Source: Naegleria gruberi (Eukaryota). Taken from it: a DNA stretch of 64,000 bases. The notes under the pieces were generated by a model that saw only the letters and a list, made by a program, of their open reading frames with translations, had not been told where the DNA came from and searched no databases. The position numbers and the translations under genes were made by a program. The DNA lies in the NCBI GenBank assembly GCA_000004985.1, contig GG738846.1; one strand, 5' to 3'. Shown here in pieces: positions 4,334 through 26,079 of the stretch; position 1 is the first letter of the stretch; each line of letters starts with the position of its first letter.

Positions 4334-7300
4334 ATGCTGTTTTTACAAAACATAATATTACGAAACAAACGAAAAAAAATGCTTTCACACCTGTCTCCAC
4401 ATGATGATGACTTAATTTCCGAGTCAAGTGATCATCATGATGGATCATCCAATAATAATAATAATAGGATGGAAAAGGTAGAGATGGCAATTATTTCCGA
4501 TTTGATTGAACATTTCAATCAGAGAATTTTCAATAGTACAATAACAGAGAAGGAACAATCGGAAGAACAATCCCTTCTTAAAAACGAATTGATGAAAATT
4601 GTACAATCGGAATCATTTCCTGCTCTTACAATGAAATTCTTGAGTTTAATTAAAATATTGAATAGGCCAAGTCTAAAAAGAATTGCTATTGAATTTATTC
4701 CCAAGATTTGTGGAAGCTCCGAGGAGGAAAATTCCAAAATTATTGAAGTATTGGATGGAATATTCAAGAGTGAGAATGCATTGACAAGGATTGTGATTTC
4801 AACCTTGTACAAGTTGGAAAATTTAAAAGATTCACAACAGGAGAAGGTTTTATTCATTGCACAAAATGCATTGGAATCGGTTGAGGAGGAGGATTTGGAT
4901 GATATTGTCAAGATCATGTTGAAGAATGTGACGAAAAAGAATAGTAGTGAAATTGTAAAGTACATTCGAGAAAAATTGGCCAATGATGACGTGGCCATTG
5001 TTAGGATTAGCTCTGAATTATTGGCAGACACATTTTCAACGACGCCATCTCTTGCTAATTATTTCCTAAAATCTTTAAAAGCAGAACAAGAGGAATTTTC
5101 TAAATTTGATGTTTTAATTTTAATGGTATTACTATCAACTAGGCACAGAGATAGAAATTCAACCTTTACAATATTTAAGAATGCATTTCAAAACAAACCA
5201 CAAAGAATGATTAATATTTCAACAATTTTGGATACCTTGAGTGCTGTTGGAAGTCTTTTGGATGATTGTAAATATGTAGACAGGATTTACAACTCGATAT
5301 ATATATTTATTATTTATTTATTATCAAATAGTGAGTTGTTTACAGATGAGAAGGGTGTACCATGGGTTTATAGTATTTTCATTCACTCGTTCAAGAGTTT
5401 CAAACCACTGAGAAGCAAATTTTTAACATCACTCTTGGCATTGTTTCAGTACAATGATTCCAAGTCGAATATTGCTGCGGAAATTTTGATAGGTTTATGT
5501 GATTTTGAGCAGAATGAAGAAGAGGATGAGGAATTTTCTGCCAGTCTGTGTAAACAAATTGCCTTGAATCATTTATCGATAATTAAGGATTCTCTGGCAC
5601 ATGCTGTTTCATATTCTAGTAGGTTTCACATTACAATGACTTTATATAATGATTATTACCAATAATTAATAGTAAGATGTCAACATTCACTTTGTTATTC
5701 TTTGGCCAAGTGCTCAATTCACGATCCAAAAACATTCGAGTACTTGATGATATTTATTAGAAAGCAAATTTTCAGTGGACAAGATAAGAAATCCCAACTA
5801 GGCCTTATTATTTCAATGCACCTAATTCATGAAACACACTACATGATCAGTTCAGACATTGACAGATTTGTTTTTTCACTATTTAACACGAAAAATTTTG
5901 ACGAAAATTCAATTCATATTTTAGATTTATTTATTTATAATTTTGATATTTTACTCAATATGGGGTTCGCTTCAAGAATGAAAGCAATCATTGTACAGTT
6001 ATTGAAAAATTTGGCAATTATTGACACGTTCCCAGAAATTTCACAACAAAGTAATTTTGAATTCAGAAAATTCTGCTCCATCAATACTCTTACACTTACC
6101 TCACTTCGAGCATTATCCATGCTAGTCAAGTGCTACATTCTCTGCCATGAAAATGATCAGGTAAGTTTGTTTGTTATGGATTCTTCTAAAAGAATTGAAT
6201 TAATAATAGTATCCTCTAAGCATGGCACTAATGCAAATTGGAGCAAAAGGAATTTCTAAAGAAGAATTAATGTGTATATATTCTATTGGTTATGTTTTAT
6301 ATGATCATGTTATTGAGAAGAATGTTTTGATAGAAAATCTTGACAAGGAAGACCAAGATTCTATGGTTGACTATACCGAGTATTTGCTACAGTTGAGAAT
6401 TGATATTGTAACATCTGAATCCATCAATGATACATTACACGCTTTGGATTTGGATGCATTTTTCAAATTATTCCCTCTCAGTGTGGAAATCATTTCACTC
6501 TTTATCAGAAAATACAAACACGAATATGACGAAGTATCCATGAAGAAGGAACGAGAGGCATTCAAATGCCTTTGGTCAGATTTTGATTTCATGTTGAAGC
6601 ATTTACTATTATTCAAATCGGATGAGGAAGAATCAGAGAGTCATAAATCAAATGCTAAGGGAAAGGGCGTATTTGCTCCAGATTTCAAAATTCTCTCACC
6701 CAAAAGAGTACTATTATTTGGTTCATTGTTGGAGGGAAGAAAGTCACCGAGCTCCATTTTCCAATTCATTTCTCTCACCAAGAAGGTCATTGGTGCTCTG
6801 GTGAAAAAGAGTTTCAAATATACTACTCTCTTGGCAGAGAAGAAATCAGAGATGAAAGTGAATCAAGACACTCAAAGTTTAGAAGGAAAAGACAAGGTTG
6901 ACCATTTGGTAATATGTCTATCGTATATTTATTGCTCACTTTCGAATGTGTTTTTTGTGACAAGAAACATTGATGAGGATGCATTCGAAGAGTTGATTTC
7001 TTCCTTTAAGAAGAATGACACTTCCATTCCAATTAATGTAATTTATCTTGTTCGATTGATTTTAAAACAAATTGAGGATGCTTCTTACTTTATTCATGCT
7101 TTCCAATTGAATCTTTTATTGGTATCCATTTGCCAAGGAAAGGAACTGCAAAAGATTATTGGCTATGTAGGTCTAGAATTATTGACACGAGTCTTTAGTT
7201 CTACATCTCAATCATCTACAATTGAAAAGATAGCCATGGAAGCTTATGTTTTCAAAGAATTACCATTCCATCACTTATTACACCACAGAGAAATTGCAAG

Positions 7301-15980: not shown

Positions 15981-16167
15981 TTTTTTTGAAATTGTAAAGA
16001 TTTTGTATTACTCCTCGTTTGGTGATTTTTTTAATTACCTGAAATAATGTGTTAAATGTCAAAGGTAGCCGTCAGGTTTAAAGGTAGTTCTCCACAAACT
16101 AAAAATTATTAATTTCGCTCAAAATTTATCTAATTACCCGCGAATTGGTAATAAATTGAAAAAAAAA

Positions 16168-19100
16168 ATGTTGGCAAGAAAATTGTTTGGAAAATGCACA
16201 ACAAATAATCGCCATCTCGTATTAAAATCATCGCAATATGCCACAAAATTCTACTCCACAAGTGGTGCTGAAAAAAATTTAGTTGCAAATATTGAGAGTT
16301 GTATAAGAAATATTAATAATCATTATCGGAGTAAGAAAGAAAAAGAATTTAATAACGGTTTGCTGGATTTGAAGCAATTTTGCTCCCAATTAAATGATGC
16401 AACGGAAAGGAAACTAAATGAAAAATCGTGGAATTTTTTGATTCAACAATTTTGTAGAAACGAAGCCTTTAGTGATGAAGCTACATTTTGGTTCAGAAGA
16501 GTTATGAAAGAGAAGAAATTAGCCACTCCAAATTCATTCACTTTGACTGCGATATTAAAATCATTCTCTACTATTGGTGAATTAGATATGTGTGAAGAAA
16601 TTCTACAAGAATTAGAAAGTCAAGGACTATGCAACGTTTTCTCATACATATACTACACAAAAGCTTGTCTTCAAAATGGAAACACTGAGAAGGCTTTCAG
16701 TGTTATTGGACGTATGGAGAGTAAACAAATTGAACCAAGTTTTGGAATATACATTCCTCTTCTAAAGGAAGCAACTAACCAAAATAATGTGGAAGTTGGA
16801 TTGAAACTTTATGATATGATCAAAAAAAGTAACTTGGCAAGTTTTCAATTATCATCTTGTATCGCCACTTTTGCTTTGAAGGTGAACCGACCAGATATTG
16901 CAATCGAAGAATACGAAAAGATTAAACAGAGTGAATTGATGAATGTTATAACTTGGACATGTTTAATTCAAGCATACATTCAACAAAATGATACTGAGAA
17001 AGCAATAGATACGCTTATTGACATGAAAAAACATGGTATATACCCAGATTCTGCAACATTCACAATTTTATTGAGTGCATGTGCAAATTCTAATATGTAT
17101 GAAGAAGGAGTTAAAATTCATGAACTTGCAAAACAAACACTCAAAGATTTCACAATTGGATTATCAAACACAATTATTAATTTTTACACAAAATGTGGTT
17201 ATTCAAATATTGCCATAGAAGAATGTGAAAAATTGAAACAGAACGGATTGATGAATGTTGTAACTTGGACATGTTTAATTCAAGCATACATTCAACAAAA
17301 TGACATTGAGAAAGCAATAGATATGATTATTGACATGAAAAAGCATGGTATTTACCCAGATTCTGCAACATTCACAATTTTATTGAGTGCATGTGCAAAT
17401 TCTAATATGTATGAAGAAGGAGTTAAAATTCATGAACTTGCAAAACAAACACTCAAAGATTTTCAATTAGACTATCAACAGCAACTATTAATTTTTACAC
17501 TAAATGTGGTTATTCAAATATTGCCATAGAAGAATGTGAAAAATTGAAACAGAAAGGATTGATGAATGTTATAACTTGGACATGTTTAATTCAAGCATAC
17601 ATTCAACAAAATGATATTGAGAAAGCAATGAATACGATTATTGACATGAAAAACAGTGGTGTTATACCTAGATTCAACAACATTCACAATTTTATTGAGT
17701 GCATGTGCAAATTCTAATATGTATGAAGAAGGAGTTAAAATTCATGAACTTGCAAAACAAACACTCAAAGATTTCACAATTGAATTATCAAACACAATTA
17801 TTAATTTTTACACAAAATGTGGTTATTCAAATATTGCAATCGAAGAATACGAAAAGATTAAACAGAGTGAATTGATGAATGTTATAACTTGGACATGTTT
17901 AATTCAAGCATACATTCAACAAAATGATATTGAGAAAGCAATAGATACGCTTATTGACATGAAAAAACATGGTATATACCCAGATTCTGCAACATTCACA
18001 ATTTTATTGAGTGCATGTGCAAATTCTAATATGTATGAAGAAGGAGTTAAAATTCATGAACTTGCAAAACAAACACTCAAAGATTTCACAATTGAATTAT
18101 CCAACACAACTATTAATTTTTACACTAAATGTGGTTATTCAAATATTGCCATTGAAGAATGTGAAAAATTGAAACAGAACGGATTGATGAATGTTGTAAC
18201 TTGGACATGTTTAATTCAAGCATACATTCAACAAAATGACATTGAGAAAGCAATAGATATGATTATTGACATGAAAAAGCATGGTATATACCCAGATTCT
18301 GCAACATTCACAATTTTATTGAGTGCATGTGCAAAATCTAATATGTATGAAGAAGGAGTTAAAATTCATGAACTTGCAAAACAAACACTCAAAATATTTT
18401 CTTTAGAGCTATCGACAGCGACTATTAATTTTTATACTAAATGTGGTTATTCAAATATTGCCATTGAAGAATGTGAAAAATTGAAACAGAAAGGATTGAT
18501 GAATGTTATAACTTGGACATGTTTAATTCAAGCATACATTCAACAAAATGACGTTGAGAAAGCACTGAATACGATTACTAATATGAAAAACAGTGGTGTT
18601 GTACCTAACTCAACAACATTCACAATTTTATTGAGTGCATGTGCAAATTCTAATATGTATGAAGAAGGAGTTAAAATTCATGAACTTGCAAAACAAACTC
18701 TCAAAGTTTTCACAATTGAATTATCGCAACACAATTATTAATTTTTACACAAAATGTGGTTATCCAAATATTGCAATCGAAGAATATGAAAAGATTAAAC
18801 AGAGTGAATTGATGAATGTTATAACTTGGACATGTTTAATTCAAGCATACATTCAACAAAATGACATTGATAAAGCAATAGATACGCTTATTGACATGAA
18901 AAAACATGGTATATACCCAGATTCTGCAACATTCACAATTTTATTGAGTGAATGTGCAAATTCTAATATGTATGAAGAAGGAGTTAAAATTCATGAACTT
19001 GCAAAACAAACTCTCAAAGATTTCACAATTGAATTATCAAACACAATTATTAATTTTTACACTAAATGTGGTTATTCAAATATTGCCATAGAAGAATGTG

Positions 19101-21364
19101 AAAAATTGAAACAGAAAGGATTGATGAATGTTGTAACTTGGACATGTTTAATTCAAGCATACATTCAACAAAATGACATTGAGAAAGCAATAGATATGAT
19201 TATTGACATGAAAAAGAGTGGTGTTTACCTAGATTCAACAACATTCACAATTTTATTGAGTGCATGTGCAAATTCTAATATGTATGAAGAAGGAGTTAAA
19301 ATTCATGAACTTGCAAAACAAACTCTCAAAGATTTCACATTTGAACTATCAGACACAATTATTAATTTTTACACAAAATGTGGTTATTCAAATATCGCCA
19401 TTGAAGAATGTGAAAAACTGAAACATAACGGATTGATGAATGTTGTAACTTGGAACTGTTTAATTCAAGCATACATTCAACAAAATGACATTGAGAAAGC
19501 AATAGATATGATTATTGACATGAAAAAGCATGGTGTTGTACCTAATTCAACAACATTCACAATTTTATTGAGTGCATGCGCAAATTCTAATATGTATGAA
19601 GAAGGAGTTAAAATTCATGAACTTGCAAAACAAACACTCAAAGTATTTTCTTTAGAGCTATCGACAGCGACTATTAATTTTTATACTAAATGTGGTTATT
19701 CAAATATCGCTATTGAGGAATGTGAAAAACTGAAACAGAAAGGATTGATGAATGTTGTAACTTGGACATGTTTAATTCAAGCATACATTCAACAAAATGA
19801 TATTGAGAAAGCAATGAATACGATTATTAATATGAAAAAGAGTGGTGTTGTACCTAATTCAACAACATTCACAATTTTATTGAGTGCATGTGCAAATTCT
19901 AATATGTATGAAGAAGGAGTTAAAATTCATGAACTTGCAAAACAAACACTCAAAGATTTCACAATTGAATTATCAAACACAATTATTAATTTTTACACAA
20001 AATGTGGTTATTCAAATATTGCCATAGAAGAATGTGAAAAATTGAAACAGAACGGATTGATGAATGTTGTAACTTGGAACTGTTTAATTCAAGCATACAT
20101 TCAACAAAATGATATGTCAAACACCCACACTCCATCAGATGCAGAATATGGGTTGAATAAGGCATTTAGAGTCTATCAGGAAATGAAACAAAAAAACTTT
20201 GAACCTAACAGTTATACCTTCAGCATTTTAATGGCAGCGTGTGGAGAATATGTAGCTTCAAACATTGGAATTCAAATAATTGAGGATATAAAACAAAACA
20301 ACATGGATATCTATGAAGAGGTTATTTCTGGTATGGTTTATTTTTACTCTAGAGTTGGCCAAAAAGAAACTGCACAACAATTATTTGATAATCTTGTTAG
20401 AAAGAAGGATGAATCAAAAGAACCACTTTCTATCGTCACTTATACTAATATGCTTTCTTGTTATGCACAACACGGTAAAGGATATGAAGCTCAAAAACTG
20501 TTCGATGAAATTGTTGAAAAGAAAGTCAAAATTGATGAAATAACTCTAATAGTATTATTGAATGCATATTCACATTGTGGAATGGTTGAAGAAGCAATTC
20601 AATTATATAATGATATGAAACCAAAACATAATTTTAATCCAACCCTCTCTATTGATTGCGTTATGATTGATGTGTTTTCTCGTGCAGGAAGATTTGAGGA
20701 AGCAGAAAAACTAATAGGTAGTCGCAATGATATTGGTTTGTGGGGCGCATTGATGGGAGGATGTAGAAAATTCAATAAGATTGAACTTGGTGAAAAAGTA
20801 TTTAACAAAATGACAACAATTGATGAAAAACTAACCTCACCCTATATATTATTATCCCATATCTACACATATCATGGATTAAACGAAAAAGCTAACAAAT
20901 TGCAAAAATTGATGCGAAAAAGAGGTATAAAAAAATTGCCTGGTATTGTGTATCATGAAGAAAATGGCATTGTATTTAGATTTATTTCTGGATCTGACGA
21001 CCACAAAGAGGACTCTCAAATGTTTGCACAAATTGAGAGAATGAGAGATGAAATATTTCGTAAAATTATTAAGGCTGGATATAGACCAGATACAAGATGG
21101 GTTACCAGAACCGAATCATTGTCAGAGGAGGAAAAAGTTAATTTGCTTTATCGACATGCTGAAAAAACAGCCATTGCTCACGCCTTTGTTTTGAATCCAA
21201 ATAGAAAGAAAATAGTATTAACAAAAAATCTGAGAGTTTGCAATGATTGCCATTCGGCTACTACGTACATTTCAAAAGTGATGGATGTTGAAATTATTGT
21301 AAGAGATGCCAATAGGTATCATCATTTCAAAGATGGAAAATGTAGTTGTGGTGGTTATTGGTAA
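16168..21364 (+). CDS. PLS-class pentatricopeptide repeat protein with C-terminal E and DYW (cytidine deaminase) domains. It is a putative mitochondrial C-to-U RNA editing factor. The reading frame as assembled is broken by three 1-nt indels, so it is either a pseudogene or an assembly error.
   Basis: The ATG at 16168 starts a presequence-like N-terminus (MLARKLFGKCTTNNRHLVLKSSQYATKFYSTSG). The C-terminus is a DYW domain: HAEKTAIAHAFVLN...NLRVCNDCHSATTYISKVMDVEIIVRDANRYHHFKDGKCSCGGYW, with the HxE and CxxCH zinc-binding motifs. The body is about ten tandem 104-aa P-L-S triplets. Frame breaks sit near 17480 (-1), 17670 (+1) and 18725 (+1) and split the gene into track ORFs 16156-17529, 17656-18741 and 18635-21364. 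Confidence 0.8.
16892..20110 (+). repeat. Tandem array of about 10.3 copies of a 312-bp coding repeat, each one PPR P-L-S triplet, roughly 90% or more identical, arranged in a higher-order A-B-B' pattern
   Basis: The unit anchor 'caaatattgc' recurs at 17204, 17515, 17828, 18140, 18452, 18765, 19077, 19389, 19701 and 20013. The first unit starts near 16892 with a diverged left flank (gatattgcaatcgaag). Spacings are 312 nt, except 311 and 313 where the single-nucleotide indels lie. Units alternate between type A (IAIEEYEKIKQSELMNVITW...IDTLIDMKKHGIYPDSAT) and type B (IAIEECEKLKQ(N/K)GLMNVVTW...IDMIIDMKK...). Confidence 0.85.
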
Positions 21365-25095: not shown

Positions 25096-26079
25096 TTATT
25101 TGTTGGCAAAAATAGGTCTCTTAATGCAGCAATGACGGCGACCTTTCCTATTCATAATAATGATGAAAAAGATTATTATAGAAATGGAAACTGTGAAAAT
25201 GATACCTAACGAAATGGTAGAGGTTACAACGGCAGCAATTATAATACCACTGGTGGTTGACATTGAACCAGAATCAACTGGTGTAGGGGTTGGGTTGTCT
25301 GTAATTTCACGATTGAGATTCAAGTCAATTACTGTAAATCTTGTGAGATGATTGGTTTTACAAGTGATTGTAAATGTTTGTGAAGAGGAGGAAATTAGAG
25401 TTTGAAGACCATCGAATTGCCACGTTTGTTTTTGCTCATTGTAATAGGCACATGAATAATTAGAGTTTGTTTCCACCATAGAGATATTCTCAAACACTAT
25501 TCGAATGGGTGTTTCTAATCCAATTACTGAAATCTGACTTGTATCCAACTTCTCAAATGAAAATGTCAAAATTCCACTCACAAATTTTGAATTTTCCTGG
25601 AATGAACTCTTCATCATAACACTATCATTTCCAAAGAAACCTTTCTTCTCCAAGTACTTTTCCAGATTATTTGGTAAAACAACAGAGCCCTTATTCTTTA
25701 CATTAATTTTCTTTGAATTCAGTTCTGAAACAAGGGACTTACTGAGAGCAATATCAGTGTCATTCTGAATGGAACAATCTGAACCAATCCATCCCATCCC
25801 ACATTGACAAGTATTTGGTTTGATACAAATTCCGTTTGCTGAACAAGAGTTTGGATTTTTGTTTGAATATCCAAAACATGAATAAGTTTTGCACTGTAAA
25901 TCTGAATAACCAGATAGACAAATACATGAGTTTGCTGAGGAACAAATTCCATTTCCATTACAAACATTCGGATTAGATGAATCCAAGCCGTAACATTGGA
26001 AAGTTTCTTGTTGAACAGCTGTTTCAAGCATTGTGATCCACAACAAGAGAAGAGTTGCACCGATCATTGAAAGTTTCAT
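25096..26079 (-). CDS. Secreted/type I membrane protein with tandem EGF-like cysteine-rich modules, a GPS-like motif (C...W...C...HLTRF) and one C-terminal TM
   Basis: It has a signal peptide (MKLSMIGATLLLLWITMLETA). Three EGF/tenascin-like repeats follow (CNGNGICSSANSCICLSGYSDLQC, CSANGICIKPNTCQCGMGWIGSDC). The GPS-like motif ...SCAYYNEQKQTWQFDG...TFTITCKTNHLTRFTVIDL sits about 45 aa before the TM (IIIAAVVTSTISLGIIFTVSISIIIFFIII). A basic tail follows. Confidence 0.6.
   Translation of the reverse strand: MKLSMIGATLLLLWITMLETAVQQETFQCYGLDSSNPNVCNGNGICSSANSCICLSGYSDLQCKTYSCFGYSNKNPNSCSANGICIKPNTCQCGMGWIGSDCSIQNDTDIALSKSLVSELNSKKINVKNKGSVVLPNNLEKYLEKKGFFGNDSVMMKSSFQENSKFVSGILTFSFEKLDTSQISVIGLETPIRIVFENISMVETNSNYSCAYYNEQKQTWQFDGLQTLISSSSQTFTITCKTNHLTRFTVIDLNLNREITDNPTPTPVDSGSMSTTSGIIIAAVVTSTISLGIIFTVSISIIIFFIIIMNRKGRRHCCIKRPIFANK

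Follow-up and report, generated by a model that had tools for sequence, protein, structure and literature searches.

Does a small gene of the amoeba Naegleria gruberi encode a genuine GAIN domain, and would that domain cut its own chain as the GAIN domains of adhesion G-protein-coupled receptors (GPCRs) do? The gene is an open reading frame (ORF) on the minus strand at positions 25096-26079 of a 64-kb stretch of contig GG738846.1 (assembly GCA_000004985.1; hereafter the window), and it encodes 327 amino acids; its position is the one given in an initial annotation made from the DNA letters. That annotation proposed EGF modules, a GPS (GPCR proteolysis site) motif and one transmembrane (TM) helix, and our analysis supports this EGF-GPS-one-TM architecture. 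The best explanation as a whole, to which we assign a probability of roughly 0.6, is that the protein is a single-pass GAIN-B/GPS receptor that cleaves itself and serves as a breakable adhesion link or shedding switch.

The motif string quoted in the initial annotation corresponds to residues 210-253, and it does match GPS. The Pfam GPS profile (PF01825) aligns to residues 209-251 over profile positions 2-45 of 45, scoring 24.8 bits against a curated gathering cut-off of 22.5 (E 3.1e-5). In a phmmer search of the PDB, residues 130-254 align to the GAIN domain of ADGRL3 (latrophilin-3, 6vhh_B), with HLT on HLT. A profile of the protein's family, described below, matches only adhesion-GPCR GAIN chains in the PDB, the best being ADGRG6 (E 4.5e-7, profile positions 28-159); since these positions span most of GAIN subdomain B, the match extends beyond the 40-residue motif. 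AlphaFold2, run for residues 105-265 on a 21-sequence family alignment, returned an 11- to 12-stranded beta-sandwich that includes a single short helix, at a mean predicted local distance difference test score (pLDDT) of 90.1 and a predicted template modelling score of 0.84. A fold search with this domain model placed autoproteolytic domains of ZU5 and Nup98, both known to be remotely related to GAIN, among its lower-ranked matches, and Foldseek was concordant. Within the family alignment, C210, W220, C240, T242 and L245 are invariant, and H244, T246 and F248 nearly so. The initial annotation had named structure prediction as a check, and the lack of a GAIN-like fold as the result that would speak against it; a GAIN-like fold was found. 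A chance match to the motif is ruled out by the agreement of Pfam, the PDB profile and the fold search. We conclude that the beta-sandwich is homologous to GAIN subdomain B and contains a GPS motif.

From its N-terminus the protein comprises a signal peptide, two EGF modules, the ~150-residue beta-sandwich with the GPS motif, a disordered Ser/Thr/Pro stalk, one TM helix and a 19-residue basic tail:

25096-26079, minus strand: complete, intron-less coding sequence of the EGF-EGF-GAIN-B-one-TM protein, 327 codons and TAA (ORF list and sequence).
26017-26079, minus strand: signal peptide, about residues 1-21 (MKLSMIGATLLLLWITMLETA); a hydrophobic N-terminus, modelled as an isolated helix at 3-23, with an inferred cleavage position.
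25891-25995, minus strand: EGF module 1 (C29, C40, C46, C52, C54, C63); Pfam EGF_2, EGF_Teneurin and hEGF, with all six cysteines kept in the relative P0002.
25774-25878, minus strand: EGF module 2 (C68, C79, C85, C91, C93, C102); the best EGF_2 and EGF_Teneurin stretches lie at residues 76-104, and the six cysteines are kept.
25321-25767, minus strand: beta-sandwich of GAIN subdomain-B type, residues ~105-253, with no helical subdomain A ahead of it.
25327-25455, minus strand: GPS motif, residues 209-251, with C210, W220 and C240 (Pfam PF01825; family alignment).
25342-25350, minus strand: putative autoproteolytic triad H244-L245↓T246 (cat ctc aca), from the sequence and its alignment to HLT of ADGRL3.
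25255-25320, minus strand: Ser/Thr/Pro-rich juxtamembrane stalk, residues 254-275, by composition; pLDDT below 50 at residues 261-275, and poorly conserved in the family.
25156-25254, minus strand: single TM helix, residues ~276-308; the one hydrophobic segment past the domain on the Kyte-Doolittle scale, with an AlphaFold2 helix at 276-316.
25099-25155, minus strand: short basic cytoplasmic tail, residues 309-327 (NRKGRRHCCIKRPIFANK), from the sequence; no Pfam match.

The initial annotation had counted three EGF modules; there are two, with 12 cysteines (C29-C63 and C68-C102), and the Pfam EGF profiles scored above their cut-offs over two stretches each (EGF_2, 31.4 bits; EGF_Teneurin, 31.1 bits; EGF, 24.9 bits). 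The single TM was correctly called, and the HL↓T site lies 30 residues before it, closer than the ~45 residues first estimated for the GPS motif. A type I topology is predicted, since the positive charges sit after the TM.

We then asked how widely the domain occurs. A homologue search with the 21-sequence profile A3 returned only P0001, a near-identical copy of the protein; the family was recovered by an exhaustive profile search with residues 105-265 and their equivalent in P0002 against 1.84 billion representative proteins, which yielded 54 matches at E ≤1e-3 and 15 at E ≤1e-10. The relatives form about 25 clusters, and those with a named source come from N. gruberi, N. fowleri and N. lovaniensis; UniProt already names some of the N. 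lovaniensis proteins 'GAIN-B domain-containing protein'. By hydropathy scan, exactly one TM is predicted past the domain in each of the 23 closest relatives after P0001 (P0002, P0006-P0024, P0026, P0027 and P0030), and the family ectodomains carry teneurin-type NHL repeats and strings of EGF modules. Overall identity within the family is 25-38%. The signature reads C-x-T-x-H-L-T-S-F-A-V-I-D-x-N-x-K-K, H-L-T/S is kept in 25 of 27 representatives, and of the 161 alignment columns the 14 best conserved include those of H, L, T and F. With a ~160-residue juxtamembrane domain containing C-x-T-x-H-L-T-x-F, exactly one TM and EGF modules upstream, the 327-residue protein is the smallest member of this Naegleria-wide single-pass family, and its architecture is no one-off.

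The NHL/EGF-GAIN-B proteins of Naegleria (N. lovaniensis KAG2381920.1, one of those with the UniProt name; N. gruberi EFC36400.1, EFC38228.1 and EFC47550.1) match over the ~160-residue domain at E 1e-18 to 1e-8 and 25-33% identity. They share with our protein the signature C-x-T-x-H-L-T-S-F-A-V-I-D, the loss of the same cysteine pair, the single TM and the short basic tail. Unlike them, it has two EGF modules only and no NHL propeller, and where the family strand T-S-F-A-V-I-D is followed by a conserved N-x-K-K, it reads TRFTVID without N-x-KK. Its closest small relative is P0002 (349 aa, 34% identity), which has the matching signal peptide-EGF-EGF-GAIN-B-TM layout from signal peptide to tail and, on sequence, appears ortholog-like; the two make up a separate small-protein subgroup (34% identity, versus ~30% for the rest of the family). 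The P0002 gene lies at 5001-6050 of a 9036-bp contig (L001; Logan SRR25266757), where its neighbours include an RNase H ORF.

Three members, P0013 (N. fowleri CAG4715597.1, 2142 aa), P0030 (578 aa) and P0038 (N. lovaniensis KAG2386703.1, 1329 aa), have, besides GAIN-B and one TM, a protein kinase domain on the cytoplasmic side (Pkinase E 1e-48 to 1e-51) and look like 'GAIN-B receptor kinases'. In P0013 and P0038, helical-looking non-EGF sequence stands directly before the sandwich, ~80-150 residues upstream of GAIN-B; some Naegleria GAIN domains may thus retain a subdomain A, the EGF-linked ones being without it. Two other members, P0015 (524 aa, Y-S-L-E) and P0033 (455 aa, F-F-W-L-T), have a degenerate cleavage triad with the rest of the domain kept, and may be naturally non-cleaving variants or gene-model errors. 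In the long paralogs P0006, P0008, P0010 and P0012 (Naegleria spp.), the ectodomain upstream of GAIN-B matches the teneurin-type NHL (PF25021) and teneurin EGF (PF25024) profiles. Animal teneurins are ligands of GAIN-bearing latrophilins; the presence of teneurin-type profiles beside GAIN-B in Naegleria is probably coincidental domain reuse. Among the weaker profile matches are proteins with several TM helices, a jakobid protein resembling the 'sperm receptor for egg jelly', and single-pass proteins of other eukaryotes.

How does the domain compare with GAIN domains of known function? With those of adhesion GPCRs (ADGRE5/CD97, ADGRG6, ADGRL1/3, BAI3; Arac et al. 2012) it shares the GPS pattern C...W...C-x-x-x-H-L↓T-x-F and a last strand, T-x-F-x-V, in which the residues after the cleavage site resemble the tethered-agonist core (T-x-F-A-V). 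Its EGF repeats N-terminal to the GPS domain recall the ADGRE (EGF-TM7) group. The differences begin with the helical subdomain. All described GAIN domains have a subdomain A of 2-6 alpha-helices. In a full-length model of our protein (pLDDT 78.8), EGF module 2 ends at about residue 104, the first sandwich strand occupies residues 109-116, and the only helix in the GAIN-B region (139-145) lies inside the sandwich. The GAIN domain proposed in the initial annotation therefore stands as subdomain B, and not as a full GAIN domain, since the model has no subdomain A. Two of the four canonical cysteines are present, as that annotation noted: C210 and C240 are the equivalents of the C801-C832 disulfide of latrophilin-1 (CL1), while the positions of C820-C834 are taken by L225 and T242, a loss that extends across the whole Naegleria family. 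Judged from the alignment, one whole disulfide is lost cleanly and the remaining two cysteines are predicted partners. Canonical GAIN domains also have two tryptophans, of which the second is kept (W220) and the first is replaced by Y213.

The region after the scissile site departs in its own way. A disordered Ser/Thr/Pro stalk of ~25 residues separates domain and membrane in the full-length model, and strand position +7 is an almost invariant Asp in the family, versus Met in adhesion GPCRs (TxFAVLM; alignment columns at query residues 246-252). An Asp at this position fits a structural last strand without docking into a seven-transmembrane (7TM) pocket. Adhesion GPCRs have a class-B-type 7TM domain directly behind GAIN, whereas here one hydrophobic segment (276-308) is followed by 19 residues and a stop, and no 7tm Pfam profile matches.

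Among proteins that are not GPCRs, the sea-urchin proteins SpREJ1, SpREJ8 and SpREJ9 provide a precedent for a GPS just upstream of a single TM in a surface protein, and SpREJ1 also has an EGF module; such a single-pass REJ protein may be an analogue in proposed function. A REJ-like protein of the jakobid Andalucia godoyi (P0053) is a weak match to the family profile. However, members of the PKD1/REJ family have a REJ module upstream of GPS, PLAT after the first TM in most cases, and 1-11 TM helices, and they are ~5-10 times larger than our protein. In the latter we detected no Pfam match to the REJ module, PKD repeats, C-type lectin or PLAT domain, with none for REJ, PKD or PLAT at E up to 10, and the only ~105 residues between EGF module 2 and GPS belong to the sandwich. 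PKD1-type GAIN domains further differ in a subdomain A of some four helices and in an additional inserted beta-sandwich. We looked for the features that define each of the two groups and found them missing, and conclude that the protein is neither an adhesion GPCR nor a PKD1/REJ protein.

The sequence suggests that self-cleavage at L245↓T246 is likely. By the proposed mechanism, GAIN-B would cut its own chain between L245 and T246 while folding in the endoplasmic reticulum: the T246 hydroxyl, deprotonated by H244, would attack the L245 carbonyl in an N-to-O acyl shift, and hydrolysis would follow, as proposed for latrophilin, in which the roles of CL1 H836, L837 and T838 are described (Arac 2012). 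The products would be an N-terminal fragment (EGF-EGF-GAIN-B, about residues 22-245) bound non-covalently to a C-terminal fragment (246-327), the two being held together by the last beta-strand, T-R-F-T-V-I-D, still buried in the sandwich. Their predicted masses are about 25 kDa plus N-glycans for the first, with sequons at N106, N151, N198 and N207, and about 9 kDa for the second. With no 7TM bundle to activate, a plausible output is the force- or ligand-dependent release of the EGF-bearing ectodomain, so that the architecture would suggest a breakable adhesion link or shedding switch and not a cis G-protein signal. For the GAIN domains of adhesion GPCRs, the force reported for dissociation is 10-20 pN. 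In the kinase-bearing paralogs, the cleavage or release event could gate the kinase. A functional analogy is offered by the SEA module of MUC1, a juxtamembrane self-cleaving module of a type I protein whose two non-covalently associated chains are separable under force. The alpha/beta SEA fold is unrelated to the GAIN-B sandwich, its site is another one (G↓SVVV versus HL↓T), and the likeness concerns the self-cleavage proposed here.

The alternative that survives best is that the GAIN-B fold is real and catalytically silent, a rigid juxtamembrane spacer or ligand-binding module in one chain, like BAI3 and other cleavage-deficient GAIN domains. Several observations weigh against self-cleavage, and some of them for such a silent domain. 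Deletion of subdomain A from latrophilin-1 abolished cleavage, and every GAIN domain shown to cleave has at least 2-3 subdomain A helices, whereas here there are none. Two disulfides are said to stabilise the scissile turn, of which one is absent here, and the first conserved Trp is a Tyr. Moreover, some animal GAIN domains, those of cleavage-deficient adhesion GPCRs, do not cleave in spite of a canonical HL↓T/S triad, and the lost triads of P0015 and P0033 suggest that the fold tolerates this loss. On the other side, cleavage does occur in natural variants whose subdomain A is as short as 2-3 helices, and the retained cysteine pair, a putative disulfide, adjoins the scissile turn. Cleavage-site mutations of CL1 abolish cleavage without preventing folding or surface transport; taken with the retention of H-L-T/S in all but two of the 27 divergent representatives and the conservation of the following F, this points to selection on catalysis. 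We consider a silent domain possible, though somewhat unlikely, and favour the self-cleaving receptor.

Considerably less probable is that the protein is a partner or decoy for Naegleria 7TM receptors that bear GPS motifs and a regulator of G-protein signalling (RGS) box, signalling in trans, or in cis via another receptor, like the one-TM isoform of Drosophila Cirl. Such receptors, whose ectodomains combine EGF-like repeats with a GPS motif, are described in N. fowleri, a species of the same genus (Bosch et al. 2022, PMC9283941). They differ from our protein, in a comparison by description only, in having seven TM helices and a cytoplasmic RGS box in place of one TM and a 19-residue tail. The one-TM Cirl isoform is described to heterodimerise with the 7TM form, and the weak family-profile matches include 7TM proteins, for example P0054, whose C-terminus is RGS-box-like by eye only. 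However, there is no 7TM gene, RGS gene or paralog within the window, a single TM is the rule among the 23 closest relatives, and the Asp at strand position +7 contrasts with the Met of adhesion-GPCR tethered agonists. We regard a role as partner or decoy as very unlikely, and return to the self-cleaving receptor as the preferred reading.

That the ORF is a chance reading frame or a decaying paralog, as its absence from the reference proteome might suggest, is barely credible, given a signal peptide, 12 correctly spaced EGF cysteines, an intact GAIN-B, a TM and a stop-transfer tail in a single uninterrupted frame, the pattern of differences from a second strain described next, and the matching architecture of P0002.

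A similarity search with the protein returned only P0002 and P0001, the latter a 99% identical metagenome copy in a one-member cluster. This copy (on metagenome contig L002) represents a second strain; it is free of indels relative to our gene, and the nucleotide differences comprise 11 that are synonymous and 4 that are non-synonymous. Because of this ratio, and because P0002 shares the architecture, the ORF looks, on sequence comparison, like a real, conserved N. gruberi gene. There is no upstream in-frame start in its stop-to-stop frame. Neither the 327-residue product nor a 323-residue product searched beside it was found in a collection of 15 billion proteins. The two flanking ORFs are identical to N. 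gruberi EFC49908.1 and EFC50113.1, which places the window in the nuclear genome of N. gruberi. Both are present in that collection as GenBank entries, so the product appears to be missing from the N. gruberi reference proteome, and the reference genome seems to have no annotation at this locus. A search for a record of contigs encoding either neighbour protein found nothing.

The neighbouring genes in the window are unrelated housekeeping genes (pentatricopeptide-repeat (PPR)/DYW proteins, TMEM144, a PNP_UDP phosphorylase, TAFII28 and RMP), and the 5' flank of the gene extends to the divergently transcribed phosphorylase gene. The possibility that the ORF is an exon of a larger gene is ruled out by the signal peptide at its start, the stop-transfer tail at its end and the reach of the 5' flank to the phosphorylase gene. 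A hidden Markov model of the GAIN-B domain, searched against every ORF of 50 aa or more in the six frames of the window, identified no paralog, only the gene itself. Elsewhere in the window, at 16156-21364 on the plus strand, three consecutive ORFs encode PPR proteins, the last of which (18635-21364, plus strand) carries an E motif and ends in a DYW deaminase domain (PF14432, E 1e-37), the architecture of plant-type RNA-editing factors. Factors of this PPR-DYW architecture have already been reported in Naegleria.

Several elements of this description are already known: a GPS with one TM (SpREJ1/8/9), a GPS with EGF repeats in the N. fowleri 7TM-RGS proteins (PMC9283941), and the GAIN-B names of relatives. 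GAIN domains have been known in protists, in Dictyostelium and Tetrahymena, since 2012. A recent survey of the field gives PKD1-like proteins as the only other family known to have GAIN domains, beside adhesion GPCRs, and treats GAIN as a two-subdomain fold. Within the searchable literature, we found no paper on Naegleria with a GAIN domain or a GPCR proteolysis site, none on GAIN without subdomain A, and no description of GAIN-B with one TM and a kinase. What appears to be new, in that we could not find it described, is a single-pass family, including receptor kinases, in which subdomain B, with one disulfide, makes up the whole of GAIN.

A more far-reaching proposal is that a bare subdomain B of ~150 residues with one disulfide is a self-sufficient autoproteolytic, force-breakable juxtamembrane switch throughout the Naegleria single-pass family, including the kinases P0013, P0030 and P0038. 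We put this forward tentatively and regard it as doubtful. If it were so, GAIN-mediated dissociation would be a signalling principle of ancient origin that does not depend on 7TM or polycystin scaffolds, and the 327-residue protein, as the smallest natural GAIN protein, would be an ideal minimal model. If the domain does not cleave, it would be one more lineage-specific use of a known fold. If the self-cleaving receptor proposed here is correct, the protein would offer the smallest natural system for testing the true requirements of GAIN autoproteolysis and mechanical dissociation. It would also support the notion that the GAIN-B module is older than its fusion to 7TM receptors and functions independently of it. 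For this discobid amoeba, it would point to an undescribed receptor family, some of its members with kinase domains, in a genus that includes the pathogen N. fowleri.
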